A stretch of 64,000 bases of DNA, from positions 32,001 through 96,000 of the IMG/VR virus record IMGVR_UViG_3300025121_000023. One strand, 5' to 3'. The notes beneath the pieces are model-generated. The model ran no database searches, was not told where the DNA came from, and saw only the letters and a program-made list of their open reading frames with translations. Within the stretch, counting starts at the first letter, position 1. Each line of letters begins with the position of its first letter. Origin of the DNA: a virus. The position numbers and the translations under genes were made by a program. Below are positions 2,081 through 50,488 of the stretch, in pieces.

Positions 2081-2096
2081 TGTTCCACGTGGAACA
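2081..2096. promoter_or_regulatory. parS site (ParB binding palindrome)
   Basis: Perfect palindrome TGTTCCACGTGGAACA, intergenic, matching the bacterial parS consensus. Confidence 0.8.
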
Positions 2097-2097
2097 A

Positions 2098-2409
2098 TTA
2101 ACTAAAAATTTCAAGTTTTTCATCTACCCAAGAACGTCTCCATCTTAACCAAGGATTTTCGAATGATAAATTATCATTAAATTTAACTATACGTTTAAAT
2201 TGAAGCCTAGATGTTACTACATATTTATTTAACCAACAAAAATGTTTCATAATAACAACAGGTATAATAGGAAATATTGTTCTTCTATATATACGACTAG
2301 TTATTTTAATTTCATAATGTCGATGTGGATGAATATTAATATCATTTGAATCTATTGTTTCTATAATAGTAAATTCTTCTCCACCTATTCTAAATTTTTC
2401 TTTTGCCAT
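2098..2409 (-). CDS. hypothetical protein, paralog of 2450..2749
   Basis: Shared EKF, IIE, EI/VK.T, P(I)xP and Trp-rich C-terminus. Confidence 0.65.
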   Translation of the reverse strand: MAKEKFRIGGEEFTIIETIDSNDINIHPHRHYEIKITSRIYRRTIFPIIPVVIMKHFCWLNKYVVTSRLQFKRIVKFNDNLSFENPWLRWRRSWVDEKLEIFS

Positions 2410-2449
2410 ATTAGTAATTTATAAATAATTGATATGATCTATCCATATC

Positions 2450-2749
2450 TTAAATCATATCAATTATTTCTTCTGATAACCATTCATATTTCCACTTACC
2501 CCAATATTTACGATATGTCCACTCATCATTGAAATATTGTTTACGTAATATATAAAGTCTATAAACAATTATGCATTTTTTAAACCAACGAAATTTTCCA
2601 CCTATATGTATTGGAAAAATAGGATATACTTCTTTTTTGATAATTTTATTAGTTTTTTTAACTTCAAATTCATTATCTCCTTCTATATCATTAGAAACAA
2701 AAGATTCAATTATATCAAATATATATCCATTAAATTTAAATTTTTCCAT
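2450..2749 (-). CDS. hypothetical protein, paralog of 2098..2409
   Basis: Same shared motifs as 2098..2409. Confidence 0.65.
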   Translation of the reverse strand: MEKFKFNGYIFDIIESFVSNDIEGDNEFEVKKTNKIIKKEVYPIFPIHIGGKFRWFKKCIIVYRLYILRKQYFNDEWTYRKYWGKWKYEWLSEEIIDMI

Positions 2750-2770
2750 CAGTATATTTTTAAATTTGTT

Positions 2771-3373
2771 TTACATTCCACCAAACATTATTGCATAAGC
2801 AATTCCAAATTGTCCAACAAATAATAACATATATAGAAATTTAACAAAAGCATCACCATCATAATCAACAGGTTTAATTATTTCATATTCTATATTTGTA
2901 TCCCATAATCTTCGTATTAGTGGTACTTTTGTTTTAGCTATTTTTTTAATACCAAATTGGTTTTTATAAAAAATTGGAAGAGATATTGAACATATTATTA
3001 TGAGTAAAATACCTATTATAATTCTAACAGCATCCTTACCCATTACTTTCCAGGCTATTAAATACATTGTGAATTTTCCTACATTTGTACCACTGAATTC
3101 AACAGCAACATCTTTAACTGCAAATAATCCTTCTCTGATTACTGAACCAATTTCACTACCAACACCTACCCATTTACCATAATGTGATATTTTATCTTCC
3201 AACATTTTCAATTCTTTTTCAGCTTTAATTTTAGCTAATTGATCAGGTGTTAAATCACTTTCATTTACAGTAATTGTTTTTTCGGGAACCACTGTTGTTT
3301 GTGCATTTGCACTTGGACAACAAGATAATGCAATCATTAAAATTGCAAATAAAATAAATCCTAATTTTTTCAT
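2771..3373 (-). CDS. membrane protein with signal peptide
   Basis: N-terminal signal ending ANA-Q, two hydrophobic segments. Confidence 0.65.
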   Translation of the reverse strand: MKKLGFILFAILMIALSCCPSANAQTTVVPEKTITVNESDLTPDQLAKIKAEKELKMLEDKISHYGKWVGVGSEIGSVIREGLFAVKDVAVEFSGTNVGKFTMYLIAWKVMGKDAVRIIIGILLIIICSISLPIFYKNQFGIKKIAKTKVPLIRRLWDTNIEYEIIKPVDYDGDAFVKFLYMLLFVGQFGIAYAIMFGGM

Positions 3374-3418
3374 TTTGTGTTTAATTTAAGTTAATATAAG
3401 TATTTAAAAATTATTATA

Positions 3419-3426
3419 CAAAGATA
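3419..3426 (-). promoter_or_regulatory. Bacteroidota-type -7 promoter element (TATCTTTG); equivalents at 1713, 10669, 14572, 20437, 22491, 23217, 28404, 37891
   Basis: TAnnTTTG recurs in intergenic gaps just upstream of minus-strand genes. Confidence 0.7.
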
Positions 3427-3460
3427 TAATAAAATATTTTATAAACCAAATTAAAAAATA

Positions 3461-4675
3461 TCAAATTTGATATATTGGACAAGCAATCCCACAAGTTTTA
3501 TTATTAATAGTTATATTAGCAAAATCCCTTGTTTTTTTAGCTAACCAAACATCTTTCATAAAATTATCAATTTCTAAAACATTTATTCCTTCAGACCAAT
3601 CTCCTGGTGCATTTTTTACATTTTCTGAAAAGCTACATGGATAAAAAAAACCTAATGAGTTGATATATAATGAGTTTAATGTACTTTCACAACTCTCTGT
3701 ATATTTTTCTATATTTTTTGCATTTGGTCTTGATTGTATCACTTTTACGAATTTTGGTTGAGTGCAAGAGTCAAATCCAATAGGAATATTATTATTTAAT
3801 GCATAATCTACAATATTTTTAAATTTTTCATTACTTAATATCGAATATGCATTATCAACTGATCGACCTTTTTTCTTAAGACTTAAAAATACCAGGGCGT
3901 TAAGTGATTTTAATCTTGAATCAGTTTTTATATCTTTCATTAATTTAAATGCATTATCATATGTTTCTGTTGATAACATATAATGAATATTGCATTGTTT
4001 CATTCCTCTATTTGTCAATTCTTTTATAGCATTGTATGTTAAATTTTTATTATAAAAACTAACAGCGACTGCACCCATTGTAGATGCTAATTTATCAAAT
4101 AATTCAGGTGCCATACGATCACCATTTATTGTTACATTAGGAATTACACCATTATTTCTACAATAATTAAATATTTCCCACATATCAGGGTTTGCATCTA
4201 TATCCGTAATTCCAAAAGCAATCTGAGTTATAGTTGGAATTAATTTATTAAATAATTTTTTAAATGTATCTAATGACATATTACCTTCACCATTTATTTG
4301 AGGATGGTTAGATTTATAACAAAAAGAACAAGGTCCTATTCCTTTTACCCCATGACAAGATGTACTCAACTCTATATCAGCAATTTCTGGTAAAAATTGA
4401 TACATATTTCCATCGGTTTCTAAGTCCATTAAAAATTCTTTTAAATCGATCTTACCAAAAAAATCAGTCCAAATTTTATAAATCATTAAACTTGCACCAC
4501 TTACTATTTTTGGTTTTTCTGTACCTTTTCTATTTCCCCATCTAACAAAAAATCCGTCTTTCTTATTAAAAAAAAAATTATAATCATCTGATTTAAATAG
4601 TTTATATTTATCAGTATCTATAACTATACCGACAGAACCATCTATCATAGTTATTTCGTTTGTTATAATTTTCAT
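3461..4675 (-). CDS. radical SAM protein with C-terminal SPASM/twitch-like Cys cluster
   Basis: CHGVKGIGPCSFC (expanded CxxxCxxC), NVTING, SCES..YPCSF..C...CP. Confidence 0.85.
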   Translation of the reverse strand: MKIITNEITMIDGSVGIVIDTDKYKLFKSDDYNFFFNKKDGFFVRWGNRKGTEKPKIVSGASLMIYKIWTDFFGKIDLKEFLMDLETDGNMYQFLPEIADIELSTSCHGVKGIGPCSFCYKSNHPQINGEGNMSLDTFKKLFNKLIPTITQIAFGITDIDANPDMWEIFNYCRNNGVIPNVTINGDRMAPELFDKLASTMGAVAVSFYNKNLTYNAIKELTNRGMKQCNIHYMLSTETYDNAFKLMKDIKTDSRLKSLNALVFLSLKKKGRSVDNAYSILSNEKFKNIVDYALNNNIPIGFDSCTQPKFVKVIQSRPNAKNIEKYTESCESTLNSLYINSLGFFYPCSFSENVKNAPGDWSEGINVLEIDNFMKDVWLAKKTRDFANITINNKTCGIACPIYQI

Positions 4676-4676
4676 T

Positions 4677-4982
4677 TTAATATCCTAAATATGGTAAACT
4701 TAAAATTCGTTTAATATTATAACCATTAAAAGGCCATTCTTCATTACAATGTGTTTGTATGAAATAATTTTTTTCCTGATTTGGAAATGTGCCATTTTCA
4801 TATTTATGAATAAAAGATGTAATTTTATCTGCTATTTCCCAATCATACCCATCAACTCCTCTAGGATTAGCAAATGCTTCATTTATTGTAGTTATTATAA
4901 AATCATAATGACACATATCTAATAATACAAAATGAATTTCATCACCCGATTCGTGCCAAGTTACTAAAAAATATTCTTTCAT
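4677..4982 (-). CDS. hypothetical protein
   Basis: ORF in operon. Confidence 0.6.
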   Translation of the reverse strand: MKEYFLVTWHESGDEIHFVLLDMCHYDFIITTINEAFANPRGVDGYDWEIADKITSFIHKYENGTFPNQEKNYFIQTHCNEEWPFNGYNIKRILSLPYLGY

Positions 4983-5004
4983 AATTTTTTTTTTACAAAT
5001 TTAA

Positions 5005-5199
5005 TTAAATATATTCTATTTTTTCAATAATAGTAAAATTTGCAGGATATAAACTTATGGTTTCTCCATCTTCATCTAAAAATATAATTGATGAATTTTC
5101 AATAATATAATTATATGCTTCTAACATATCAATGTAATATTGACGTTCATATTCATCACTATTACTAGGGTATAATATTTTTAAATGATATTTTTTCAT
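5005..5199 (-). CDS. hypothetical protein
   Basis: ORF in operon. Confidence 0.55.
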   Translation of the reverse strand: MKKYHLKILYPSNSDEYERQYYIDMLEAYNYIIENSSIIFLDEDGETISLYPANFTIIEKIEYI

Positions 5200-5210
5200 A
5201 TATATAAATT

Positions 5211-6155: not shown

Positions 6156-6168
6156 AGTTTTTATTTAT

Positions 6169-6435
6169 TTATTTATATTTATTAATTCTTCTTGGTGTAT
6201 AATCAGGTGCTATTGGTTTATTTTCTGTTAACATATCCCAAGATATTCCCCAATTATCTAATCTTGGTAATAATTTATTTTTATCAACATAATAAGGATA
6301 TGGTGTACCAATGTATTTATTCATACGTATATTCCAACCAGCTTGTATTTTGTGAAACCCCAACCCCCAATCTTCACCAAATTCTTTTATAAATTCAGTT
6401 TCAGTTTTAAATCTATATGGATAATGTTCTGTCAT
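6169..6435 (-). CDS. array paralog
   Basis: MTEHYPYRFKTE...PDYTPRR. Confidence 0.75.
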   Translation of the reverse strand: MTEHYPYRFKTETEFIKEFGEDWGLGFHKIQAGWNIRMNKYIGTPYPYYVDKNKLLPRLDNWGISWDMLTENKPIAPDYTPRRINKYK

Positions 6436-6704
6436 TTCTTTCTTCTTGGTGTATAATCAGGTGTAATTGGTTTATTTTCTGTTAACATATCCCATGATAT
6501 TGACCAACCATCAAAACTTGGTAATCTTGTAAATGGTATTTCTAATCTATCGACATAATAATAAGGATATGGAATGCCAAATAAATAATTCATTTTTGGT
6601 ATTGCCCAATCAACAGTACCTCTTCTACCAATATTCCAATTTTCACCAAATTCTTCTATAAATTCAGCTTCAGTTTTAAATCTATATGGATAATGTTCTG
6701 TCAT
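6432..6704 (-). CDS. array paralog
   Basis: MTEHYPYRFKTE...PDYTPRRKK; ATGA overlap with next copy. Confidence 0.75.
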   Translation of the reverse strand: MTEHYPYRFKTEAEFIEEFGENWNIGRRGTVDWAIPKMNYLFGIPYPYYYVDRLEIPFTRLPSFDGWSISWDMLTENKPITPDYTPRRKK

Positions 6705-6803
6705 TTTATTATATTATCTAAGTTTTTAAAATAATTTTGTAAAGATACAAATTTATTATTATTATTACAAATATAACCTATATTATGTATAATTACGTGT
6801 TCT

Positions 6804-7229
6804 TTATATCCAGTTTTCACCAAATTCTTTTATAAATTCAGCTTTAGTTTTAAATCTATATTGATAATGTTCTTTTATTTTTTTTCTTCTTGGTGTATAA
6901 TCAGGTATATTTGGTAGAATAGTAATATCTAAAAAAAACATTTCAAAACCCATATCATCTCTTAACAATGACCACCAAGGTTCATTTATATTATGTTTAT
7001 ATTTTTCTATAATAGTTAAAGATTTATCTATATTTCTATATAGAAAAGTATTTGAATCTCGTTGCCAAGCAAACTTATAAACTTTAAAATAGTAAGTGCT
7101 TTTAACTAAACTTTCAGCATTTTTAAATAATCTAACTTTGTCTCCTACAAAATATTTAGGTAATTCCCAACCATTTATATCAACTAATTGTCTTATTTTT
7201 TCGTTATCTCTATCTCGTAAATTTAACAT
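6804..7229 (-). CDS. unrelated protein with PDYTPRRK tail fused to a truncated array copy; 5' end probably frameshifted
   Basis: ...PDYTPRRKKIKEHYQYRFKTKAEFIKEFGENWI*; frame is open upstream to about 7310. Confidence 0.55.
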   Translation of the reverse strand: MLNLRDRDNEKIRQLVDINGWELPKYFVGDKVRLFKNAESLVKSTYYFKVYKFAWQRDSNTFLYRNIDKSLTIIEKYKHNINEPWWSLLRDDMGFEMFFLDITILPNIPDYTPRRKKIKEHYQYRFKTKAEFIKEFGENWI

Positions 7230-7327
7230 TTTATTTTTGGGTTTATAATATAGTACTCTTTCTTTTACACCATATTTTAAAATATTTTCTATTATATCTA
7301 ATTCATTAATATATCATATTATCAAAT

Positions 7328-7621
7328 CTAATAACTATATTCTTGATAATATGATGTATTATGTTTATCATTTCTTTTTCTTCTTGGTGTATAATCAGGT
7401 GCTATTGGTTTATTTTCTGTTAACATATCCCAAGATATTGTCCAATAACTTAAACTCTGTAATAATTTATTTTCATCAACATAATAAGGATATGGAATGC
7501 CAAATAAATAATCCATATCGTTATTCCAACCAGATCTTATTTTTTGAAATCTCCAGCGTTCACCAAATTCTTTTATGAATTCAGCTTCAGTCTTAAATCT
7601 ATATGGATAATGTTCTGTCAT
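7328..7621 (-). CDS. array paralog with altered C-terminus
   Basis: One A fewer in the terminal A-tract extends the frame past the usual TGA. Confidence 0.72.
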   Translation of the reverse strand: MTEHYPYRFKTEAEFIKEFGERWRFQKIRSGWNNDMDYLFGIPYPYYVDENKLLQSLSYWTISWDMLTENKPIAPDYTPRRKRNDKHNTSYYQEYSY

Positions 7622-7872
7622 TTCTTTTTTCTTCTTGGTGTATAATCAGGTTTAATTTCTGTTAACATATTCCAAGATATTGACCAACCATCTAATCTTG
7701 ATAACATTTTATTATTTTTATTAACAAAATAAGGATATGGTGTACCAAAAAGATTATTCATTTTTGGTATTGCCCAATCAACACGACCACCTTTATTGAT
7801 ATTCCAATTTTTACCAAATTCTTTTATGAATTCAGCTTCAGTCTTAAATCTATATGGATAATGTTCTGTCAT
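7618..7872 (-). CDS. array paralog
   Basis: MTEHYPYRFKTE...PDYTPRRKKK. Confidence 0.75.
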   Translation of the reverse strand: MTEHYPYRFKTEAEFIKEFGKNWNINKGGRVDWAIPKMNNLFGTPYPYFVNKNNKMLSRLDGWSISWNMLTEIKPDYTPRRKKK

Positions 7873-8144
7873 TTCTTTTTTCTTCTTGGTGTATAATCAG
7901 GTTCAGTTGGTTTATTTTCTGTTAACATATCCCAAGATATTGACCAACCATTTAATTTTGGTAATAATTTATTTTTATCAACAAAATAAGGATATGAAAT
8001 GCCAAATAAATAATCCATACTTGATATCCAATCAACACGACCACCTTTATTGATATTCCAATTTTTACCAAATTCTTTTATGAATTCAGCTTCAGTTTTA
8101 AATCTATATGGATAAGGTTCTTTCATATTTAGTATAATGTCCAA
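7869..8144 (-). CDS. array paralog (likely start at MKEPYPY)
   Basis: MKEPYPYRFKTE...PDYTPRRKKK. Confidence 0.75.
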   Translation of the reverse strand: MDIILNMKEPYPYRFKTEAEFIKEFGKNWNINKGGRVDWISSMDYLFGISYPYFVDKNKLLPKLNGWSISWDMLTENKPTEPDYTPRRKKK

Positions 8145-8515: not shown

Positions 8516-8516
8516 A

Positions 8517-8909: not shown

Positions 8910-8924
8910 ATCACTTATTTATAA

Positions 8925-9260: not shown

Positions 9261-9263
9261 AAT

Positions 9264-10060: not shown

Positions 10061-10073
10061 AATTTAAATATTT

Positions 10074-10346: not shown

Positions 10347-10348
10347 AA

Positions 10349-10651: not shown

Positions 10652-10683
10652 ATCTGTATAATTTGATACAAAGATACGAAAAA

Positions 10684-11203: not shown

Positions 11204-11206
11204 AAA

Positions 11207-11743: not shown

Positions 11744-11756
11744 AATGCAAATTTAA

Positions 11757-20481: not shown

Positions 20482-21270
20482 TTGACCATCAAATTTTTAT
20501 ATATAGATAATATGGTAGTTAGTGAAACAGTTGAAATAAATATTGAACGTAGAAATATAACTTTTTATAGAAAATTAGGCTATGAGTTAAAAGTTGGAAC
20601 AAAATTAGTAATTCCAGTTAATCAATTAATGATAGGCGCTAAAAATAAAATAAAAATATTTTGTGATATATGTAATATACATTTTTATGTAGTATATAAA
20701 GATTATTTAAATTCTAATAAAAACCATAATTTTGATGTGTGTAATAAATGTAAATTTGAAAAAATTAAAATAACTAATAATAAAAAATATGGGTGTGATT
20801 CACCATTACAAAATAATAAAATATTACAAAAATTTATTGAAACTAATAATAAAAAATATGGTGGAAATTCTTCTAGTAATAGCCAAAAAGTATTAGATAA
20901 ACAAAGAAAAACTAGAATTAAAAATAAAATAGAAATACCATCTGATATACCTATTGGAGAATTTAAAAAATATAGAAACAGAGTAGATACATTTACTAAT
21001 AAAAATAAAAAAGAATTATTTAATAGTTGGAATGGTTATGATTTTTATGATGGAGAATATATTAAAGATAATCTTAAATTACATTTTAATGGTAAAAATT
21101 ATCCTACAATAGAACATAAAACATCTGTATTTTATGGATTTATGAATAAAATATCTGAAGAAGAAATATCCAAATTAGAAAATCTGGCTATTACTAAAAA
21201 AAGTATAAATAGTTCAAGAGGAAATAAAAATTTTGATTTATTCAGAGAAAGTTTTAATAAAATTATTTAA
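20482..21270 (+). CDS. putative HNH-like free-standing endonuclease (likely ATG at 20512)
   Basis: CxxC pairs, KKYG repeats, YPTIEHK...NLAITK.SINS; paralog of 47791..48708. Confidence 0.65.
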   Translation: MTIKFLYIDNMVVSETVEINIERRNITFYRKLGYELKVGTKLVIPVNQLMIGAKNKIKIFCDICNIHFYVVYKDYLNSNKNHNFDVCNKCKFEKIKITNNKKYGCDSPLQNNKILQKFIETNNKKYGGNSSSNSQKVLDKQRKTRIKNKIEIPSDIPIGEFKKYRNRVDTFTNKNKKELFNSWNGYDFYDGEYIKDNLKLHFNGKNYPTIEHKTSVFYGFMNKISEEEISKLENLAITKKSINSSRGNKNFDLFRESFNKII

Positions 21271-24499: not shown

Positions 24500-24612
24500 T
24501 TCTGTATTTTGATGACAAATAATGACATCTGATACATTTTTTTCCTAATTCAACGACAAAACTATTGTTTCATCTCCAAAGGCGTTAATTTGGGTGAACT
24601 CGACCCTATTTA
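24500..24612 (-). ncRNA. putative omegaRNA overlapping the tnpB 3' end
   Basis: Position plus GC-richer stems (GGGTCGAGTTCACCC, AACG...CGTT); boundaries uncertain. Confidence 0.5.
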
Positions 24613-25744
24613 TTTTATCATCTTTAATTGATTTCAATCTTATACCTTCATTTTTAATGTTTATTGCTGCGTTTAAATCCCTGTTTAGTACAGAATTGCA
24701 TTTTGAACAAGTCCATTCTCTATCTTTCATAGTTAATTTATCATTTTTAACTCCACAACAACTACATTTTTTTGATGATGGAAAAAATCTATCAATTTGT
24801 ATTACTTCTCTATCATACCATATAGCTTTGTATTCTAAAATTGTTTTAAATTTATTTAATGATAATTCTTGAATTGATTTAGCTAAATGATGATTTTTTA
24901 ACATTCCACTTACATTTAAGTCTTCAATAACTATAGTTTGGTTTTCTCTAAGTAATTGATTAACTACACTATGTAAATAGTTTTCTTTTATATTTGTTAT
25001 TTTTTCATGATATTTTGATAATTTTATCCTTATTTTTTGTTTATTTTTTGAACCTTTTTGTTTTCGTGAAAGCAACTGATTTAACCTTTTAAGTTTTTTT
25101 TCATTATTTCTAGTTGATTTTATATTTTTAAATACTTGGTTATCAGATGATACGATAAAATCTTTTATACCTAAATCAATACCTATAATATTATTTTTAG
25201 GTTTTTGTAATATTTTATTTGGCTTATCAATTAAAATGCTAAAATAATATTTATTTGATTTAGTTTTAGTTAATGTACCAGATTTAATTAAATATTTATT
25301 TTTATTTAAATAAATTTCATCTTGTCTTGAACATTTAAAATGAATATCTTTTAATGGTCTAATTATATTTATTCGATTTCCATTGATTTTACCGATGGCA
25401 TCAACAGGAAATCTACAAGATTGTTTGTTGTGTTTTGATTTAAATTTTGGAAATCCATTACCATTACTAAAAAATGATTTATAAGCAATATCTAAATTAA
25501 CTAAACTCTGTTGTAAAACCTTTGAATGGCTATCTTTTAACCAATTAAATTCTTCGATTGCTTTTAAATTAGTTAAATATTTTCCTGTTTCTACAAAAGA
25601 AACTGATTTTTTATGATTATTATATTGATCAATTTTATGAGCTAAACAATTGTTATAAACAAATCTGGATGATCCAATTAATTTATTCACATAAATTGTT
25701 TGTTCATTATTTAAATATAATCTTGTTTTTATTGCTTTTAACAT
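24545..25744 (-). mobile_element. tnpB: TnpB RNA-guided nuclease (IS200/IS605/IS607 type), no adjacent tnpA
   Basis: N-terminal HTH (RFVYN), RuvC-I GIDLGIK, RuvC-II IEDLNV, CSCC/CSKC Zn ribbon, RuvC-III RDLNAAIN. Confidence 0.93.
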
Positions 25745-34951: not shown

Positions 34952-35740
34952 TTGAATACAGGATATATGACAAATACTATGATTCAAGGCGATTGTCTTG
35001 TTGAAATGCAAAAAATCGAAGATAAATCTATTGATATGATCTTTGCTGACCTACCTTTTGGAACTACAAACTGCAAATGGGATTCACCAATAGATTTAAA
35101 TTTATTATGGATACAATATAAAAGAATAATCAAAGACAATGGTACTATTTTATTATTTGCTCAAACACCGTTTGATAAAGTGCTAGGATGTTCAAATTTA
35201 GAATGGTTAAGGTATGAATGGATTTGGGAGAAAACACAACCAACAGGTCATCTTAATGCAAAAAAGATGCCGATGAAAGCACATGAAAATATACTAGTAT
35301 TCTATAAACATCTTCCAGTATACAACCCTATTAAAACTTTTGATCATAAAAGAAAAGTATCCACAGCACATCATAAAAGAAATACTAATCAAGGTGAAAT
35401 TTATCACGAACATGGTAAATTTGTAGATTATGATAGTACAGAAAGATACCCAAGAAGCGTATTGAAATTTGCAAGTGATAAACAGAAAGTTAATTTACAT
35501 AGCGCACAAAAACCATTATTATTATGTGAATATATGATTAAAACCTATACTAATGAGGGGGATACAGTATTAGATAATGTTATGGGATCTGGAACGATTG
35601 GAGTTGCGTGTTTTAATTTAAATAGAAATTTTATTGGAATGGAAATATATAAAGATATTTTTGATATTGCTAAAAAAAGAATTCAATTCCATTCACGTAG
35701 AATTAAATTAAAAAAATTATTAAAAAACATAAATCAATAA
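34952..35740 (+). CDS. DNA N6-A/N4-C methyltransferase, beta class (likely ATG at 34967)
   Basis: GDCL, DLPF (motif IV variant), HE.I, H..QKP, VLD..MGSGT. Confidence 0.9.
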   Translation: MNTGYMTNTMIQGDCLVEMQKIEDKSIDMIFADLPFGTTNCKWDSPIDLNLLWIQYKRIIKDNGTILLFAQTPFDKVLGCSNLEWLRYEWIWEKTQPTGHLNAKKMPMKAHENILVFYKHLPVYNPIKTFDHKRKVSTAHHKRNTNQGEIYHEHGKFVDYDSTERYPRSVLKFASDKQKVNLHSAQKPLLLCEYMIKTYTNEGDTVLDNVMGSGTIGVACFNLNRNFIGMEIYKDIFDIAKKRIQFHSRRIKLKKLLKNINQ

Positions 35741-35988: not shown

Positions 35989-36678
35989 ATGGCAATATTA
36001 TTATTAATTTCGTTTCTTATAGTTATGTTATCTATAGATGCGATAATTCAGTACAAAAGAAAAAATAAAGAAGATGTATCAGTAAAAAATTATTTTAATA
36101 CAACTGATTTATTAGACGAAAAAAAAATTATTATACCAAGAGGTATACTTTTTGACAAAACACATACTTGGACACATATGAAAAAATATGGTAATGTTAG
36201 AGTAGGTGTTAATGATTTTCTACAACATATTATTGGTGATATAACAAAAGTAATTATGAAAAACAACAATGAATATGTTAAAAGAAATGATTTATTATTA
36301 TCTATTATTCAAAATGGTAAAAAAATTAATTTATATTCACCAGTGAATGGTAAAATTGTTTGTTGTAATAATAATTTATTAAAAAATTCTAATTTAATAA
36401 ATGAATCTCCTTATGAAGATGGGTGGATATATGAAATATCCCCTACTAATTGGGAAAAAGATATAAAAAGTATGTTAATGGATAAAACTGCTTTTGAATG
36501 GATTGAAACAGAATTTGTAAGATTTAAAGATTTTTTAACTAATACACAATTAAAAAATAAAGAAGAATTAATAATATTACAAGATGGCGGAGAAATAAAA
36601 GACAAAATACTATCTAATTTTGGTCCTGAAATGTGGGAAGAATTTCAGTTAAATTTCATCAATAAAAATAAATTATAA
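35989..36678 (+). CDS. membrane-anchored GcvH-like protein
   Basis: N-terminal TM, HTW, VGVNDF, SPVNG, NxxPYxxGW, LQDGG. Confidence 0.8.
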   Translation: MAILLLISFLIVMLSIDAIIQYKRKNKEDVSVKNYFNTTDLLDEKKIIIPRGILFDKTHTWTHMKKYGNVRVGVNDFLQHIIGDITKVIMKNNNEYVKRNDLLLSIIQNGKKINLYSPVNGKIVCCNNNLLKNSNLINESPYEDGWIYEISPTNWEKDIKSMLMDKTAFEWIETEFVRFKDFLTNTQLKNKEELIILQDGGEIKDKILSNFGPEMWEEFQLNFINKNKL

Positions 36679-36682
36679 CAAA

Positions 36683-37384
36683 ATGGATCCAAATACATAT
36701 ATAAATATATTCGAAACAAAAGGTTTAGAATATATTTTAACAATACTATATTTTGCAATTTTAATACCATTTTGGATTGTTTTAAACAATCCAAAAGTGA
36801 GAAAGTATCTTAAAGATAAAATAAAAGTTATAACATTAAGCATATTAAAAATACCACGTGGTATATTTTTCAGTAAGAATTATACGTGGTCATATTTAGA
36901 AAAATCTGGTTTGGCTAATGTTGGTGTTAATGATTTATTTCAACATTTTGTTGGTAATGTGGAAGTAAAACATATTAGAAAGACAGGTGATTTAATAAGA
37001 AAAGGACAAATAATAACATTAATAAGTAAAAATGATAAAATACTTAAAATAAGCTCTCCTATATCTGGGGAAATTGTTAAAATTAATAAATCATTAGAAA
37101 TTAATTCAGAATTATTAAATGATAATCCATATAATAAAGGTTGGTTTTATTCTATTAAACCTAGTGATTGGTCTAATGAAACAAAAAAATATTTTTTATC
37201 AGAAGATTCTGTAAATTGGGTTAATAATCAATTATCTGTTTTTAAAGATTTTTTATCTAATTCTATATCATCAGATAATAATTTAATTTTACAAGATGGT
37301 GGTGAATTATTAGATAATACATTATCTGAATTGCCAATTAATGTATGGAATGATTTTCAAAAAGAATTTTTAAATGATATTTAA
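36683..37384 (+). CDS. membrane-anchored GcvH-like protein
   Basis: FETKGLEY + TM, VGVND, SPISG, NxxPYxxGW, LQDGG. Confidence 0.8.
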   Translation: MDPNTYINIFETKGLEYILTILYFAILIPFWIVLNNPKVRKYLKDKIKVITLSILKIPRGIFFSKNYTWSYLEKSGLANVGVNDLFQHFVGNVEVKHIRKTGDLIRKGQIITLISKNDKILKISSPISGEIVKINKSLEINSELLNDNPYNKGWFYSIKPSDWSNETKKYFLSEDSVNWVNNQLSVFKDFLSNSISSDNNLILQDGGELLDNTLSELPINVWNDFQKEFLNDI

Positions 37385-37984: not shown

Positions 37985-38908
37985 TTATATGTACAGTGCT
38001 TTTGCTTTTCTTCTTTGCCTAGTATTTTTACCAATAGTTAAAAGATTTTTTAATTTCATTGCTCTATGTAATCTTGTAATACCTATACCAGCACCATATC
38101 TTTCAATCATTGGTAATGATAAATATTCTTTTAATTCATCTTCAACTCTTTCTTTTGAAAATTTATCATATAATAATTTAGAGTATTCACCATCTGATAT
38201 TGTATGAAAACTATCTAACATTTGTTTTGTATCACACGATCTTTCAGCGGCACCAAATGTTTCTTGACCACATATAATAAAATCACATTTATTATATAAT
38301 TCATCACCTGTTTTTTCATCTACCCCATGATATGACATATTAAAAAAAGGCGATGTTCTCTTTGGGAAATGTGTTATTGCTACTACATCACCATATTCTT
38401 CCCACATCATATTTTCGTGTTCAGATTCTAAAATATCTACACCATATTTATCACATAATTCATTATAAGTAAAGAATGGTATATCTTCTATACTTTCTAC
38501 AAATCCTAAATGTACACTTAATTCACTCATAGTTCTTATAAGTCCTTGAAAATCACCTTTATGTTCAAACTCAAACATTCCAAAAATTTTTTTGTGTCGA
38601 TTTTCAATAGGGTTTTTTTCATCTCTATATGAAGTAGTTGTACAATATATTCCATCTGCTTCTTCTGGCATAGTTAATAATATCATCTCCAAACTCATTT
38701 GATTTGTCTGTGCCAACGGCCAAGTGTTTCCATCAAATGAAAATGATCTTAATGTAGATGGATCTTCACAAGCTGCTAAAATAGATTTTATTGGTGATGG
38801 AAATACTTCTTTGTAATTTTTTTGGCTAAAAAAAGACCTCATTAATTTAATAATGAGGTCAAAGTCTTGAGGACCAATTACTTCTTGATTAAAAATTTTT
38901 TTCGTCAT
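37985..38908 (-). CDS. AsnRS/AspRS catalytic-domain paralog lacking the anticodon domain (asparagine synthetase AS-AR/AsnS2-like)
   Basis: Class II motif 2 YRDE...RH..IF.MFEFE, E..G.AER, motif 3 GAGIGITRL. Confidence 0.75.
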   Translation of the reverse strand: MTKKIFNQEVIGPQDFDLIIKLMRSFFSQKNYKEVFPSPIKSILAACEDPSTLRSFSFDGNTWPLAQTNQMSLEMILLTMPEEADGIYCTTTSYRDEKNPIENRHKKIFGMFEFEHKGDFQGLIRTMSELSVHLGFVESIEDIPFFTYNELCDKYGVDILESEHENMMWEEYGDVVAITHFPKRTSPFFNMSYHGVDEKTGDELYNKCDFIICGQETFGAAERSCDTKQMLDSFHTISDGEYSKLLYDKFSKERVEDELKEYLSLPMIERYGAGIGITRLHRAMKLKNLLTIGKNTRQRRKAKALYI

Positions 38909-39006
38909 AAATGTTTTTTTTTAAGGGCAAAAAATTACCCAAAAACAGTCTTGTTATATATTAATATTTTATGTTCTATTTTTTCTAAAAATGAATTATA
39001 CAAATT

Positions 39007-39038
39007 AAAAAAGGTGAATAAAATTTATTCACCTTTTT
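39007..39038. terminator. intrinsic terminator (bidirectional)
   Basis: AAAAAAGGTGAATAAA-ATTTATTCACCTTTTT. Confidence 0.75.
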
Positions 39039-39110
39039 GAGCATATCTGTGGAATTTAACCACCCCTAATCACAGGTTTGTGATTTATGCAAACATTACA
39101 CCTTAATAGC
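39039..39110 (-). tRNA. degenerate tRNA-like element (pseudo-tRNA)
   Basis: D-arm-like GTGTAATGTTTGCAT, stem AATCACA/TGTGATT, T-arm-like GTGG-TTAAATT-CCAC; acceptor stem poor. Confidence 0.3.
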
Positions 39111-39206
39111 AATTATTATTTATATATTTAATTTTTAAATTAGTTTAAATTAAATTAATATATAATTATATATTAAAAAAATTATATGATAATTTAAAAG
39201 AAACAA

Positions 39207-40112
39207 ATGAATAAATTAACATTAGAAAAATTTATCGAAAAATCTAAAAAAATACATGGTGATAAATATGATTATAGTTTAATTATTACTTTTGAAAATA
39301 ATAAATCTAAAATAGATATCATTTGTCCAATACACGGTATATTTAAACAAAGATTGTCAAGTCATTTTACATACGGTTGTAGCAAATGTTCATTTGATGA
39401 ACTAAAAACAAAACCAGAAGACTTTTTTATAAAAGTTAATAAAAAATATAATTCGTTTTTTAGTTATAATGAAAATAGTTTTGTAGATATGAATACCCCT
39501 ATGAAAATAATATGCCCTATTCATGGAGAATTTTTGCAAAAACCTAGTAATCACTTATATAGAAAAGGTTGTAAAAAATGTAAAAATGAAAAAATAGGTA
39601 ATTTAAAAAGAAATAAGTTAGATTATTTCATAAACCAATCTAATATTGTTCATAATAGTTTTTTTGATTATACAAACGTAATTTACATAGATAATAAAAC
39701 TAAAGTTAAAATTAATTGTCCAACACATGGTATATTTAAACAAAGACCAGATGATCATATAAGAGGTATTGGTTGCCCTATTTGTAATGAAAGTAAAGGA
39801 GAAAAACAATTAAGAATTATATTAAAAAAATATAATATTGAATTTGAAATACAAAAAATATTTAAAAATTGTAAAAACGTAAGAACATTACCATTTGATT
39901 TTTATTTACCTGAAAAAAATATATGCATTGAATATGACGGAGAACAACATTTCAAAGAAAATACTTTTTGGGGTGGTAAAGATGCTTTTAAAAAACAACA
40001 AATGAGAGATAAAATAAAAACCGATTTTTGCAAAAAAAATAATATAAAATTACTTCGTATAAGATACGATGAAAATATAAAAGAAAAATTATCTAATTAT
40101 TTAAATATTTAA
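39207..40112 (+). CDS. free-standing endonuclease, family of 33578..34681
   Basis: CPIHG repeats, FDFYL..IEYDGEQH. Confidence 0.8.
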   Translation: MNKLTLEKFIEKSKKIHGDKYDYSLIITFENNKSKIDIICPIHGIFKQRLSSHFTYGCSKCSFDELKTKPEDFFIKVNKKYNSFFSYNENSFVDMNTPMKIICPIHGEFLQKPSNHLYRKGCKKCKNEKIGNLKRNKLDYFINQSNIVHNSFFDYTNVIYIDNKTKVKINCPTHGIFKQRPDDHIRGIGCPICNESKGEKQLRIILKKYNIEFEIQKIFKNCKNVRTLPFDFYLPEKNICIEYDGEQHFKENTFWGGKDAFKKQQMRDKIKTDFCKKNNIKLLRIRYDENIKEKLSNYLNI

Positions 40113-40154
40113 CAACAGTATATATCGATTTAATAGAAAAAGATAAAGAAACAA

Positions 40155-41243
40155 ATGGGTAAACGAAAAACAAATAACGAATGGTATGATTTATTTAATA
40201 ATAAACACAATTTTAAATATAAATATATTGATATTATTACAGAAAAAAATAGAAGATTCGTAGTATTTGATTGTGGAAAACATGATATACAAAAACAAAG
40301 AATAGAACAGCATTTAAAAGGGTTTGGCTGTCAAAAATGTTATAATAATGAAAAAAAAATAAATAGTAATCATTTTATAAATGCTATGAATGAAATTCAT
40401 AATAATAAATACTCTTATATCGATGGTTATAAAAATATGAAAACTAAAATAAAAATAAAATGTGAAAAACATGGTATTTTTTATTTATATCCGATTCATC
40501 ATAAAAATGGGCAAGGTTGTAAAAAGTGCAAAATGGATAAACATAACGAATTAAAATTATTTAAATTTATTAATAATGCAAATATTAAACATAATTTTAA
40601 ATTTAGATATGATAAATTTATTTATAACGGGTATAATAAAAAATCTATTATTACTTGTCCTATTCATGGTGATTTTTTAATGAGTTCCTATAGTCATTTA
40701 AAAGGTAGAGAATGTAAAAAATGCAAAATTGACGAACAAACTAAAACAAATAAACAATTCTTATTAGATGCTAATAAAATACATAATAATTTTTATATTT
40801 ATCCAGAAAAATATGTAAATTCTAATAGAAAAATGTTAATTATTTGTCCATTACATGGTTCATTTTATCAATTACCAAAAAATCACACATCAAATAAACA
40901 AGGTTGTCCTAAATGCAATAGAAGTAATGGTGAATTGGAAATAGAAATGTTATTAAATGATTTTAATTTAAAATATATTATTGAATATAAATTCGAAAAA
41001 TGTATAAATAAATTACCATTACCATTTGATTTTTATTTACCAGAACATAATTTGTGTATTGAATATGATGGAGAACAACATTTCAAAGAAAATACTTTTT
41101 GGGGTGGTAAAGATGCTTTTAAAAAACAACAAATAAGAGATAAAATAAAAACCGATTATTGTAAAGAAAATAATATACATTTACTTCGCATAAGATATGA
41201 TGAAAATATATTAGAAAAATTAAATTTTATCTTGACATTATAA
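40155..41243 (+). CDS. free-standing endonuclease, same family
   Basis: CxxHG repeats, FDFYL..IEYDGEQH. Confidence 0.8.
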   Translation: MGKRKTNNEWYDLFNNKHNFKYKYIDIITEKNRRFVVFDCGKHDIQKQRIEQHLKGFGCQKCYNNEKKINSNHFINAMNEIHNNKYSYIDGYKNMKTKIKIKCEKHGIFYLYPIHHKNGQGCKKCKMDKHNELKLFKFINNANIKHNFKFRYDKFIYNGYNKKSIITCPIHGDFLMSSYSHLKGRECKKCKIDEQTKTNKQFLLDANKIHNNFYIYPEKYVNSNRKMLIICPLHGSFYQLPKNHTSNKQGCPKCNRSNGELEIEMLLNDFNLKYIIEYKFEKCINKLPLPFDFYLPEHNLCIEYDGEQHFKENTFWGGKDAFKKQQIRDKIKTDYCKENNIHLLRIRYDENILEKLNFILTL

Positions 41244-42057: not shown

Positions 42058-42153
42058 TTATATTTATTTATTTTTATTTATATATTAAAATTATAAAATC
42101 ATAAAAACTTAGGTGCTTATATTTTAATATATAAGAATAAACATTAAAAAAAT

Positions 42154-43800
42154 ATGATATTAGAAAAAGATAAAGAAATATTTATAAATGGTTCTATGCT
42201 TAATAGATATAAAAATTTAGGATATGATGTAAAAGATATAGGTACATATATTATACATACAAAAGATTTACTAGATAGTAGTCACATATTAGTTAAATGT
42301 AAATGTGATAATTGTGGGAGTATAAAAAATATAAGATATTGTAATTACAAATTAAATATTAATAAAAATATAAAATATTTTTGTAATGATTGTAAATTAG
42401 AAAGAATTGAAAAAACTAATTTAAAAAAGTATGGAGAAAAAAGCACATTATTAGTAGACATATTTAAAAATAAACGAAACGATACTATGATAGAAAAATA
42501 TGGCAATATTATCCCATTAAAAAATAATGTTATTGTAGATAAATTTAAAAAAACAAATATGGAAAAATATGGAAATAATTGTTCATTATTAAATAAAAAT
42601 ATAAAACAAAAATCAATAAAAACAAACATAGAAAAATATGGAGTAGAACATTATTCTAAAACCAATGATTTTAAAGATAAAATTAAAAATACAATTTTAC
42701 AAAAATATGGAGTAGAACATTATTCTAAAACCAATGATTTTAAAGATAAAATTAATGAGTACACAATAAATAGAATTTTAAATAAGCATGATTTAAATAT
42801 AATTAATATAAATGGAGATAATTATAATTGCAAATGTAATAAAAATCATATATTTAATATTAATTATGGTCTATTAAAAAATAGATTAAGATTTAATATT
42901 ACTGTTTGTACTATATGTAATCCTATTAATGATCATATTTCTGATAAAGAAAATAAATTATTAGATTTTATTAAAGAAAATTATAACGGGAAAATAATAG
43001 AAAATGATAGAAATATAATTAAACCTTATGAATTAGATATTTACTTACCTGATTTAAAATTATCATTCGAATTTAACGGAGTTTATTGGCATAACGAATT
43101 ATTTAAATCAAATAACTATCATAAAAATAAATCCGATTTATGTGATGAACAAAATATTCAGCTTATACATATTTATGAGGATGATTGGATTTATAAACAA
43201 GATATAGTTAAATCAATGATATTAAATAAATTAGATAAATCTTTAAATAAAATATATGCAAGAAAAACAGAAGTAAAAGAAGTAACAGATAATAAATTAG
43301 TTAGAGAATTTTTAAATAAAAATCACATTCAGGGATTTGTTGGTTCAAAAATTAAAATAGGATTATTTTATAAAGATGAATTAGTTAGTTTAATGACTTT
43401 TGGTAAATTGAGAAAAGCTATGAATTCGTCTTCAAGTGATGGACAATTTGAAATGCTTAGATATTGTAATAAATTAAATACTAATGTAATTGGAGGTGCT
43501 AGTAAATTGTTTAAATATTTTATTAAGAGTTATGAATTTAAAGAAATAACTACATATGCGGATAGAAGTTATTCTAATGGTAAATTGTATGAAGTATTAG
43601 GATTCAAATTTATACATAAAACTGATCCAAATTATTATTATGTCATTGATAGTATTAGATATCATAGATTTAATTATAGGAAAGATGTTTTAATTAAAGA
43701 AGGATATGATGCTAATAAAACAGAACACCAAATTATGTTAGAAAGAAAGATTTATAGGATTTATAATTCTGGTAATTTAAAATTTGAATTTATAATTTAA
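42154..43800 (+). CDS. free-standing endonuclease with KYG repeats (Hef-like), paralog of 50986..52581
   Basis: TNxEKYG repeats, ELDIY..EFNG.YWH, IYEDDW, NHIQG, YADR. Confidence 0.75.
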   Translation: MILEKDKEIFINGSMLNRYKNLGYDVKDIGTYIIHTKDLLDSSHILVKCKCDNCGSIKNIRYCNYKLNINKNIKYFCNDCKLERIEKTNLKKYGEKSTLLVDIFKNKRNDTMIEKYGNIIPLKNNVIVDKFKKTNMEKYGNNCSLLNKNIKQKSIKTNIEKYGVEHYSKTNDFKDKIKNTILQKYGVEHYSKTNDFKDKINEYTINRILNKHDLNIININGDNYNCKCNKNHIFNINYGLLKNRLRFNITVCTICNPINDHISDKENKLLDFIKENYNGKIIENDRNIIKPYELDIYLPDLKLSFEFNGVYWHNELFKSNNYHKNKSDLCDEQNIQLIHIYEDDWIYKQDIVKSMILNKLDKSLNKIYARKTEVKEVTDNKLVREFLNKNHIQGFVGSKIKIGLFYKDELVSLMTFGKLRKAMNSSSSDGQFEMLRYCNKLNTNVIGGASKLFKYFIKSYEFKEITTYADRSYSNGKLYEVLGFKFIHKTDPNYYYVIDSIRYHRFNYRKDVLIKEGYDANKTEHQIMLERKIYRIYNSGNLKFEFII

Positions 43801-43834
43801 TATATAATATCAAATTATAATTTTAACAATAAAT

Positions 43835-47237: not shown

Positions 47238-47779
47238 TAAGCATCAGATAAACCTACACTATTGTTAGCAAAAGCATATGAATTACCTCTTGATATACCG
47301 ATTGATTCTGCGGTAAATGCCGCATTTTCATCAGCCCCCAAAAATATAAATTCCCAATTAAAATCATCTTTCATTTCTTGAACTAATTTTTTTGTTTGCT
47401 CTTTTGAAAATTGTTTACTATTGTTTTCTTGACCATCTGTCAATATTACACAGAGAGTTTTTTCAGGTCTTTTATCTTTTGGTAAATTGCCAAGTTTATT
47501 AATTTCATTGTTAATTGTTTTACATACAGAATCATAAATTTTTGTCATACCACCAGTTACATAATTATTTTTATCAAATAATTTGCATTCTTGAATATCT
47601 TGATCATCATAAAGTGGTTTATAAACATCACTAAATAGTATTGTTGATACTAACGCATTACCATCAACTGATTTTTGTTCTGTTAAGAATTCATTAAATC
47701 CGTTTATTGCCATATCAATCATCGAACTCATCGAACCTGATTTATCTATTATATTTATTATTTTTACATATTTTTTCAT
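47138..47779 (-). CDS. vWA domain protein
   Basis: MIDAS DKSGSM, GMT..YD, ILTDGQEN, FLGA. Confidence 0.88.
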   Translation of the reverse strand: MKKYVKIINIIDKSGSMSSMIDMAINGFNEFLTEQKSVDGNALVSTILFSDVYKPLYDDQDIQECKLFDKNNYVTGGMTKIYDSVCKTINNEINKLGNLPKDKRPEKTLCVILTDGQENNSKQFSKEQTKKLVQEMKDDFNWEFIFLGADENAAFTAESIGISRGNSYAFANNSVGLSDAYQNISRATKVYRMSADVSMDNLLNDEKPKKSKK

Positions 47780-47790
47780 TTTTTCTAATA

Positions 47791-48708
47791 TTATTTTTTA
47801 AAATCGCTATGATTTTTTATTTTCTTTTTACTATTTATTGATCTTTTAGTAATACATAAATTATTTATACTAGCTATTATATGTGGATTTATATTGTTTT
47901 TAAATCCATAAAAAACACTTATTTTATGATCAATTGTTGGGTATAATTTATTACTATAATGTAATTTTAAATAATCTTCTATATATTCATTGTCATAATA
48001 ATCTAAACCATCCCAATTTTCAAATAGTTTATTTTTTAATCTTCTAGTTAATTTATTTATTAAATCTCTATAAACAGTATAATCATTTTTTTGGATATTG
48101 GAACATTGTAGTCCTTTATCTTCTTTTGTTTTTCTTATTTTATTTAATACTTCATCACATTCAAAAATATTATATGTTCCGAATTTATCGAATATAGTTT
48201 TTTTTGATTTTTTCATTATTTCTTCTGATTGTGCTGAACATATATGTCCATATTTATCTAAATTAGTATTATACATTTTTTCTTTAACACTATCTACTTT
48301 CATAACATTATCAACTCCGTATTTTTCAATACAAGTTTTTTTAATATCTATGTTAGCTGAACATTTTTTACAATAATAATGTCCTTTTCTTTTTATAATA
48401 GTATTGTATGCTTTATATGTTTTAATAAATTCTTTTTTACAATTATCACATATAGCTGTTATTTTAATATGAGAAGATTTAGATAATTTATTAATATCAA
48501 TATCAATTAAATCATTTTTATTAAAATCTTTGTTATTGATATAAATGCGATAATGTTTAAGATTTTTAAATCTAATCTTAATAAATTTTTCTTTAATCAT
48601 AAGACATAAATAAGTTTTTAATTTATTAATTAAATAATAAATAGAATTGAAAAACTTATTTATATTTATATCTGCTAATAAAAAATTATCAACAAAACCG
48701 CCTTCCAT
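47791..48708 (-). CDS. putative HNH-like free-standing endonuclease (likely start near 48600)
   Basis: CDNC/CKKC, KYG repeats, YPTIDHK...NLCITK.SINS. Confidence 0.65.
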   Translation of the reverse strand: MEGGFVDNFLLADININKFFNSIYYLINKLKTYLCLMIKEKFIKIRFKNLKHYRIYINNKDFNKNDLIDIDINKLSKSSHIKITAICDNCKKEFIKTYKAYNTIIKRKGHYYCKKCSANIDIKKTCIEKYGVDNVMKVDSVKEKMYNTNLDKYGHICSAQSEEIMKKSKKTIFDKFGTYNIFECDEVLNKIRKTKEDKGLQCSNIQKNDYTVYRDLINKLTRRLKNKLFENWDGLDYYDNEYIEDYLKLHYSNKLYPTIDHKISVFYGFKNNINPHIIASINNLCITKRSINSKKKIKNHSDFKK

Positions 48709-48717
48709 AATTATATA

Positions 48718-49596
48718 TTAAATTTTTTCGCCACATTTTGGGCAATAATTAAATTTACGGTTTCTCAATCTATAACCGCAATCGCTACAATAATCTCGTA
48801 TTTTAAAATCATATTCTTCTTTTTGTGATACTGGTTTAAGTTGGAATTCAACTATATAAAATGGATGATTTTCAAATTCTATTTCTACTTGATGAAAATC
48901 TTGATTAGATTCACTTCCTTTTTCAATTCTTCCGGTTTCTTCTAAACTTTCATTTATTTTAGTAATTTCACTATCAAAATTAACATATATAGGTGAATAA
49001 TATGAAGAAGCTGTTGTTGTAACAAAATCAGTACCAGCAGTAGAATTTATAAGTGCATTATAAGAATAATGATTATATATTCTTGAATTAGAATTCTTAG
49101 AATTAATATCAGTAAAAGTTCCTTTTAATTCTGATTTATCTGTTCTTTTACGTTTACGATTACCTTTTCCTGGTTTTTGACTATTTGTATAGATATACGT
49201 ATTAGAACTCGTATAGGTTTGAACTTGTTTTTCTTTAAAGAATTTAATTTCAATTATACCATTATTTTCGACAGCTTTTTTAGAAGCTTCGTTACCTTTA
49301 TCGTATGTATATGTTTCAAATATCATACGTTTTTTGTCATCTACAAATCGGTCTAATGTAGTGACTTCGCCTGGATTTAAAATTAATAAATTATTAGAAA
49401 ACTTTTTATTTAATCCAATTTGAACACCAACCTTTTCGCTCAATGGATTGAATAAGCGAATTGCAAATTCTTGTCTATTTTCCAAAAAGATAATGTTGTT
49501 TTGATAAGTTTTTGTTTCGTCAAGGGAACTTGTCCTTGCATTTCTTGATAGTATTACCGCAGAGGGCATACTATCGTTTAAACGATAATGTGTCAT
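48718..49596 (-). CDS. hypothetical protein with C-terminal zinc ribbon
   Basis: CSDCG...CPKCG. Confidence 0.7.
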   Translation of the reverse strand: MTHYRLNDSMPSAVILSRNARTSSLDETKTYQNNIIFLENRQEFAIRLFNPLSEKVGVQIGLNKKFSNNLLILNPGEVTTLDRFVDDKKRMIFETYTYDKGNEASKKAVENNGIIEIKFFKEKQVQTYTSSNTYIYTNSQKPGKGNRKRKRTDKSELKGTFTDINSKNSNSRIYNHYSYNALINSTAGTDFVTTTASSYYSPIYVNFDSEITKINESLEETGRIEKGSESNQDFHQVEIEFENHPFYIVEFQLKPVSQKEEYDFKIRDYCSDCGYRLRNRKFNYCPKCGEKI

Positions 49597-49811
49597 TTTA
49601 TAAATTTTATTTTTTGTTTGTGAGTTGCTAGTTTTTTTCTTGCTAAATTAACAAGTTTAAGCCTTTTTACTGACTCAAAACCAACAAAACCAAATTTATC
49701 TTACATATATATATAATTTATATGCCCCGTCAAAGAAAACCGTTAAATCTTTATTTTATGTGATGAATTTGACTTTTTTGGCTTTCATTATTTAATATAT
49801 ATAATAATTAA

Positions 49812-50074
49812 ATAAAAGTTCTTTGAAATGATTTAATGGTTTTGATCTACAAACCTAGATTAAGTAAAATCATTGAGGTTTAAGTATGTAAATACTTGAT
49901 AGTCAAACATTTAACGAAAACCAAGTTAAGTGTCATTAAAAATGTTTAAAAATATTTTTAAACTGTGTGTCAGGGACTGATTTCGCAGTATAAACAAAAA
50001 GACGGTGAGGCGTTGACAATAGTCAAGTCTATGAAACGTTGAAACACATTAATATTTATTTGATGTGTAGTTCA
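49812..50074 (+). ncRNA. stand-alone structured RNA with TnpB omegaRNA/right-end-like 3' half
   Basis: ORF-free; AT-rich promoter-like motif at 49791; multiple hairpins; ends in terminal hairpin followed by TAGTTCA. Confidence 0.55.
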
Positions 50075-50101
50075 TATAATAGTTTAATTATTTTTAATAT
50101 A

Positions 50102-50488
50102 TTAATTCATTTTGCACATTACATCTTTTATTTTTAAATATCTAGTTTCTAAAGGATTTAGGTATCTAAATCTACTATTTTTATATGTTTTTTTTATATC
50201 AAAATCATTTATAATATGTACAACATTTTCATCACCATCTATAACAGTATAGGTTTTACCGATTTTTACCCCAATTACATCTTTAGATCGATGATATTTG
50301 AAAAATGAACCACGAACATCAATACATATTATTATATCGTTTTTTTTAAAAGCCATTTTTATTTCTAATTTTGAGTTAATGAATCCTGGATTACATACTA
50401 AGTCGAATGTTAGTATTTTTTGTATATCTACTGTTCCACGTGGAACATTTTTAAATACCATTTCTAATGAAATTATTTTATTTTTCAA
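50102..50488 (-). CDS. hypothetical protein
   Basis: ORF containing the parS palindrome; RYLKIKDV tail. Confidence 0.55.
   Translation of the reverse strand: MKNKIISLEMVFKNVPRGTVDIQKILTFDLVCNPGFINSKLEIKMAFKKNDIIICIDVRGSFFKYHRSKDVIGVKIGKTYTVIDGDENVVHIINDFDIKKTYKNSRFRYLNPLETRYLKIKDVMCKMN
50432..50447. promoter_or_regulatory. parS site, second copy
   Basis: TGTTCCACGTGGAACA, identical to 2081-2096. Confidence 0.75.

Follow-up and report, generated by a model that had tools for sequence, protein, structure and literature searches.

Introduction

Host-type centromere sites on a bacteriophage are known from phi29, whose 19-kb genome carries five parS sites and whose infecting genome is segregated into the prespore with the help of the host protein Spo0J (PMC2731898, in its summary of Meijer et al. 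2005). Here, we analysed a stretch of 64,000 nucleotides (the window), which corresponds to bases 32001-96000 of the linear 112,560-bp IMG/VR virus record IMGVR_UViG_3300025121_000023 (the contig; 23% complete according to CheckV), and which contains the 16-bp palindrome TGTTCCACGTGGAACA, a sequence of the chromosomal parS type. As in the Bacillus phages phi29 and Nf, a host-type parS is present in several copies on a phage; as far as that summary goes, phages of the phi29 type are lytic and without parA or parB, and Spo0J of the host acts on their genome. Unlike phi29, which exploits a spore-former through trapping in the prespore, the phage considered here has a genome of about 0.5 Mb, probably infects a non-sporulating member of the Bacteroidota, and carries predicted sites that lie about 30 kb apart.

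Two further groups of systems invite comparison. The chromosomal ParABS centromeres of Pseudomonas aeruginosa (parS2/parS3), P. putida and Bacillus subtilis resemble the phage sites in the identity of the 16-bp sequence, in the presence of multiple copies and in their location within or between genes (PMC4368675, PMC7022226). Chromosomal sites cluster near the replication origin oriC by parAB, whereas the phage sites span at least 95 kb with no parAB in view. Identical palindromes scattered through a mobile genome are also found in the phage-plasmid N15 (SopB sites) and the IncP plasmid RK2 (KorB OB sites), but both encode their own binding protein and use private sequences, whereas we saw no such gene in the present DNA, and its palindrome has the chromosomal consensus sequence. 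Our literature searches returned no description of natural host-type parS sites on phages other than phi29 and Nf. The principle is already known from phi29; the present case is notable for the megaphage scale and the spacing of roughly 30 kb.

The contig carries four copies of the palindrome. We propose, with a rough probability of 0.55, that these are loading sites for clamps of the host's ParB bound to cytidine triphosphate (CTP), placed on the genome of a virulent megaphage of about 0.5 Mb that probably infects Bacteroidota.

Results

Four copies of a chromosomal-type parS palindrome

An earlier reading of the window, made from the letters alone (hereafter the sequence-only reading), had reported two identical copies of the palindrome, had judged a chance origin implausible and had suggested a scan of the whole genome. 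Both copies were reproduced as exact matches (0 mismatches; Table 1), and the window is otherwise free of matches to TGTTCCACGTGGAACA, even with up to two mismatches allowed. The scan of the parent contig yielded two extra copies beyond the window, a third perfect one at contig position 100609 and a fourth at contig position 5131 with one mismatch (15/16; T as the final base). With regard to chance, the 14-bp core was observed four times in the whole contig against an expectation of about 1e-5 under mono- and dinucleotide models, and 100 dinucleotide-preserving shuffles of the window gave zero matches to the palindrome, which upholds the earlier judgement.

The palindrome is the sole repeated GC-rich palindrome of at least 12 bp across the contig. 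Weaker parS look-alikes were not found in the contig, and each of the six other CACGTG hexamers has 5-9 differences from parS. The sites lie 18-48 kb apart, and all eight half-sites retain C at position 5, that is, the GC-richer GTTCCAC form, despite a genome with 23% GC. Comparison of the sequences around the four copies showed that their flanks are mutually unrelated, with nothing in common beyond the 16 bp. Since the flanks and also the flanking open reading frames (ORFs; see below) are unrelated, the 16-mer itself is under selection, as expected for the site of a dimeric protein. That the motif is real and selected is practically certain. A single 14-bp palindrome at window positions 36851-36864, ATACCACGTGGTAT, has the CCACGTGG core as in parS and differs from it at 5/16 positions; it is probably unrelated.

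The sequence-only reading had also described the palindrome as a canonical chromosomal parS variant, and the comparisons agree with this. TGTTCCACGTGGAACA is one base away from the Myxococcus xanthus consensus, and three copies match the 16-bp parS pattern TGTTNCACGTGNAACA at 16/16 and one at 15/16 positions. It agrees at 16/16 bases with parS of P. putida and with parS2/parS3 of P. aeruginosa, which have been defined by experiment (PMC4368675, PMC7022226). Among 301 bacterial genomes sampled from a single phylum, that of the Saccharofermentanales genome discussed below, 54 contain the palindrome, usually as copies clustered within 0.1-2 kb, while the reversed control palindrome was found in 0/301. 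Judged by its sequence, it is a bona fide chromosomal centromere site that is used across phyla, and for this reason the parS variant alone does not identify the host. The clustering near the origin beside parAB that is seen for chromosomal parS was not found: the four sites extend over 95 kb or more in a contig in which we detected no parAB. The GC skew of the contig follows gene orientation.

A fragment of a megaphage genome

The sequence-only reading had regarded the DNA as jumbo-phage-like and had named, as one finding that would overturn its interpretation, an origin from the host chromosome near oriC. The contig proved to be a fragment of a huge phage and not a host oriC region. It contains replication genes of the T4-like type and is most closely related to complete huge phages. 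Composition is uniform (19-28% GC; 23% overall), and phage genes and starts free of Shine-Dalgarno signals occur along the whole contig. The family-B DNA polymerase and a gp46/SbcC-like ATPase are closest to their counterparts in the 735-kb phages LR756501/3 (56% and 38% identity, respectively), followed by the huge phages LR756502, LR745206, LR756504 and LR756500 and then by the Lak Prevotella megaphages. The nearest of these genomes measure 460-735 kb. These complete huge phages were placed in the "Mahaphage" clade by Al-Shayeb et al. (2020), who predicted Bacteroidetes hosts for their genomes above 634 kb, as for Lak phages. Other genes of the window encode a NAD-dependent ligase, a PRPP synthetase, a DNA methyltransferase, two GcvH-like proteins, DnaJ and an IS605-type TnpB; tRNA and Rfam searches of the window gave no matches.

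Conservation of the palindrome in related phages, which the sequence-only reading had made a test of its proposal, turned out to be partial. The site is absent from the relatives defined by the polymerase, from Lak phages and from complete huge phages. At one mismatch or fewer, no parS-type palindrome occurs in the 151 kb of three IMG/VR relatives (70% polymerase identity) or in three Lak genomes, five complete huge phages (3.1 Mb) contain no exact match and a single one-mismatch match, and none of the 12 loci recovered in a metagenome PolB scan (identity of at most 73%) matches the parS core. In two of the relatives without parS (G001 and G002), no alternative GC-rich palindrome of at least 12 bp was found. 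The ORFs that flank the sites have no relatives in the loci of the polymerase relatives or in IMG/VR, and a set of 5.8 billion proteins gave only low-complexity matches; an IMG/VR search anchored on DnaJ found only relatives with 25-28% identity.

Two copies of the palindrome are present in a further AT-rich megaphage fragment, and one in a contig of 7.7 kb. The fragment, IMGVR_UViG_3300025121_000035 (84,043 bp, 22.6% GC, 12% complete according to CheckV), carries two perfect copies at positions 41085 and 70873, 29.8 kb apart, both intergenic and in non-homologous junctions. One of them lies between convergent genes, behind a terminator-like hairpin. The other immediately follows a stop codon, and the 30-bp gap that holds it separates two small ORFs that are tandem paralogues; two sites in the present contig have this layout. 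In the 7.7-kb contig (L018, 28.7% GC), the site abuts the stop codon of a DUF7487-like ORF. Genes for DnaK, a ribonucleotide reductase with an intein and a UvsX-like RecA are present in the second fragment, which has DUF7487-type, TnpB and repeat families in common with the present contig (45-93% amino-acid identity). The parS-bearing contigs draw on a common gene pool, and presumably on a common range of hosts; the link is made by multi-copy families and not by core genes. Both megaphage contigs with parS contain chaperone genes, DnaJ in the present one and DnaK in the other.

Occurrence of parS in other viral contigs

The exact 16-mer was found in at least 120 IMG/VR contigs. Composition-matched controls were far rarer, with 3 contigs for the reversed palindrome and 1 contig for the CCACGTGG core with permuted outer bases, so that the parS 16-mer is at least 40-fold commoner than matched control palindromes. 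Among the matches listed, 42 parS-bearing records are longer than 22 kb, of which 35 hold a single copy and seven hold two, the largest number seen; completeness reaches 90% or more in 15 of the 42. A ParB_N domain is encoded by only two of these long carriers, leaving 40/42 (about 95%) of those listed without one. Host-type parS without a ParB gene therefore appears to be common in phages, and the present contig stands out among the carriers by copy number and dispersal. The excess across IMG/VR in viral contigs without ParB suggests that the strategy of phi29 is general, which could be examined by standard ParB biochemistry. One perfect copy of the canonical parS TGTTTCACGTGAAACA is located at 130722-130737 of the Chryseobacterium phage MA9V-2 (OR513085.1), a cultured 218-kb jumbo phage with a Bacteroidota host, which could be a tractable experimental system.

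Probable host

Leaders of 25 nt, taken from 132 predicted genes of the contig, are A-rich (A = 0.55-0.68 at positions -5 to -20), GGAG occurs in 1/132, and a Shine-Dalgarno signal is absent among these gene starts. Such A-rich leaders are typical of translation initiation in the manner of Bacteroidota. In addition, every named cellular top match of the full-length DnaJ belongs to the Bacteroidales (42-45% identity). The host is probably a member of the Bacteroidota, as these two independent signals agree with the host prediction for huge phages above 634 kb. They speak against a Firmicutes host, and any role of the sites would therefore differ from spore entrapment as in phi29. ParB_N was present in B. 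thetaiotaomicron, our control genome; Bacteroidota encode ParB. A consensus-type parS is present in B. caecimuris (PMC10197239). We also considered the TnpB as a guide to the host. Its nearest genome match, in a landfill Saccharofermentanales metagenome-assembled genome (57% identity), was read as traffic of a mobile gene, because the phage lacks a Shine-Dalgarno signal.

A predicted binding protein

The sequence-only reading had seen neither parA nor parB in the window. Searches for ParB_N, HTH_ParB, AAA_31 and CbiA support this and extend it to the whole 112-kb contig. A ParB_N domain was likewise absent from the second parS-bearing megaphage fragment, so that none occurs in the 196 kb of both contigs, and from the five complete related huge phages. 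Since neither the contig nor the five complete relatives yielded a ParB, that of the host is the most economical binder. We regard it as quite probable that a ParB-family protein binds the predicted sites, and see somewhat better than even chances that, overall, this binder would be the ParB of the host. The proposal builds on several observations: the identity to validated parS sites, the non-random copy number, the constraint at the level of DNA (see below), the retention of the GC-richer variant, the absence of parAB from the DNA at hand and the recurrence in a second megaphage fragment. From these we infer ParB binding, the host origin of the ParB and every downstream consequence.

The strongest competing explanation is a ParB-family system of the phage's own, encoded in the roughly 77% of the genome outside the contig and taking the form either of a P1/N15-like partition module that maintains an episome or of a KorB-like clamp or repressor with dispersed operators. 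Only 23% of the genome is in hand, the dispersed layout resembles what is generally known of N15 centromeres and RK2 KorB operators, and ParB_N is, after all, encoded by the two long IMG/VR carriers mentioned above. However, no self-encoded gene of the ParB/KorB family (P1, N15 or RK2 type) was found in the DNA at hand or, in the case of ParB_N, in the complete relatives, and the sites have the exact chromosomal consensus instead of a private specificity. We therefore consider such a system unlikely, although it deserves to be kept in mind.

Gene setting of the sites

The copy at window position 2081 lies 1 nt past the stop codon of the 103-amino-acid ORF and 12 nt ahead of the ATG (2068) of the 96-amino-acid ORF (Table 1), and the copy at contig position 5131 is found in a 28-bp gene junction. 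Both junctions belong to strings of minus-strand genes, with the site 1-5 nt past a stop codon and 7-12 nt before the next ATG. The second copy of the window had been placed within an ORF and read as NVPRGT by the sequence-only reading, and this is indeed the case: the 119-amino-acid ORF starts with M-V-F-K-N-V-P-R-G-T, and the site forms codons 5-10. The copy at contig position 100609 lies about 300 codons inside a 388-amino-acid ORF. The peptide VPRGT occurs only at these two intragenic sites, and with the codon usage of this genome, in which the Arg codon CGT of these copies accounts for only 11% of Arg codons, it would be encoded by exactly these codons with P = 0.006. This indicates a constraint on the DNA and not on the protein.

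Taking the four sites of the contig together with the two of IMGVR_UViG_3300025121_000035 and the one of the 7.7-kb contig, the neighbouring ORFs at all seven sites are unrelated to one another, so that its placement or retention must have been a separate event at each of the different junctions. We rejected a spread of the sites as a travelling mobile cassette, since flanks and neighbouring ORFs are unrelated. Five of the seven are in gene junctions, 0-5 nt after a stop codon, and three of these five are 7-14 nt before the next ATG of the coding strand. With about 13% non-coding DNA, five or more junction sites out of seven correspond to a binomial P of about 6e-4.

This bias could reflect a role in gene expression, with the palindrome acting as the operator of another dimeric regulator or as an mRNA hairpin at the junction that steers processing or translation of the downstream gene; a sixth site, over codons 5-10 of its ORF, is also close to a gene start. 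Yet selection against the disruption of coding sequence would yield the same bias, and avoidance of such disruption is most simply what it represents. One site lies far inside a gene, the 16/16 agreement with parS is very unlikely to be coincidental, and an RNA structure would not need 16 invariant nucleotides including the loop. The RNA form is a weak hairpin (-6.3 kcal/mol) without a U-run on the coding strand, and we rejected a terminator or RNA-hairpin reading on these grounds. A function in gene expression is thus kept alive by the junction bias as a minor and distinctly improbable alternative.

An origin of the repeat outside phage biology, i.e. a chance repeat, an assembly chimera with a host oriC, or a sequence targeted or left behind by a mobile element or a restriction-modification system, draws on the IS605-type TnpB and the DNA methyltransferase in the window and on CACGTG being a known restriction site, but it is largely refuted already and has only a marginal probability, given the shuffles and the expectation reported above, the uniform composition with phage genes and Shine-Dalgarno-free starts contig-wide, the lack of anything common between the sites beyond 16 bp, and the fact that restriction-modification targets measure 4-8 bp and are usually avoided rather than enriched.

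Discussion

If the four palindromes are loading sites for the ParB of the host, a ParB dimer would recognise the two GTTCCAC half-sites, bind CTP, close to a clamp and slide onto the flanking DNA. With one site per 18-48 kb, much of the phage chromosome could become coated by host ParB. The coat would link the phage DNA to the ParA gradient of the host and might thereby position it and, should the infected cell divide in the course of a long infection, allow it to be inherited. In addition or instead, ParB-dependent loading of condensin could lead to compaction and resolution of a chromosome-sized genome. Host ParB may also be drawn away from the host origin by titration.

Several points weigh against loading of host ParB. 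The absence of the palindrome from the polymerase-defined relatives, the complete huge phages and Lak shows that it is not a clade-wide feature, and the flanking ORFs have no homologues that would anchor a comparison of positions. The phage sites are dispersed, unlike the clustered parS sites of chromosomes, and their preference for gene junctions (five of seven, with the sixth near a start) also fits the alternative of gene expression. With about 23% of the phage genome in hand, a ParB of the phage could lie in the remaining 77%. Furthermore, our host is a prediction, and the use of the C/G variant by Bacteroidota hosts is an assumption.

It may be speculated that the present contig is one instance of a widespread and largely undescribed strategy, in which host parS sites at intervals of about 30 kb allow megaphages of Bacteroidota to use ParB-CTP clamps of the host, and through them ParA or condensin, to organise, position or pass on their genome during a long infection or in a carrier state. 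This wider proposal is tentative, and we would not bet on it at present. If host ParB does load onto the sites, a virus whose genome is as large as a small bacterial chromosome would manage it with the centromere machinery of the cell. This would bear on replication, persistence and packaging of megaphages, a group not known to have a cultured member. The retained C/G variant of parS may also offer a practical clue for host prediction.

Further features of the window

Table 1 Positions of the parS copies, the adjacent ORFs and selected genes in the window.
Feature	Position in window	Strand or setting	Evidence and remarks
Full-length DnaJ, host-lineage marker	480-1565	-	DnaJ, CXXCXGXG and DnaJ_C domains
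96-aa ORF, unknown function	1778-2068	-	Immediately downstream of site 2081; no Pfam or PHROG match
Perfect parS palindrome TGTTCCACGTGGAACA	2081-2096	Intergenic, 29-bp gap in gene junction	Exact match
103-aa ORF, unknown function	2098-2409	-	Stop abuts site 2081; tandem paralogue at 2450-2749, 34% identity
IS605-type TnpB	24545-25744	-	OrfB_IS605, Cas12f-like TNB and HTH domains
119-aa ORF, unknown function	50102-50461	-	Contains site 50432; no family match, no IMG/VR relative
Perfect parS palindrome TGTTCCACGTGGAACA	50432-50447	Within 5' end of small ORF	Exact match
T4-type family-B DNA polymerase, N-terminal half (504 aa)	52573-54087	-	DNA_pol_B_exo1 and DNA_pol_B; 56% identity to 735-kb phage LR756501

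The polymerase ORF comprises the exonuclease domain and only the start of the polymerase domain. As no second DNA_pol_B match was detected in the 112 kb of the contig, this seems to be a split polymerase whose two halves are encoded at a great distance from each other. The two GcvH-like paralogues (glycine-cleavage H or lipoyl carrier type) are adjacent to each other on the plus strand at 35989-36678 and 36683-37384, by an N6/N4 DNA methyltransferase at 34952-35740. A DUF7487-containing family has at least five copies, four of which are in the window (20482-21270, 42154-43800, 47791-48708 and 50986-52581) and one at about 104.6-105.4 kb of the contig. In its C-terminal part, this family shows 74-80% identity to a copy in the other megaphage contig, pointing to a family that is mobile or undergoes rapid exchange. 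Two repeat regions were also observed. Window positions 6194-7888 (contig 38194-39888) contain a tandem array of paralogues or repeats in which the six occurrences of one 14-mer lie roughly 250-500 bp apart, and at window positions 56313-56553 (contig 88313-88553) a 14-mer is repeated three times with a period of 120 bp.

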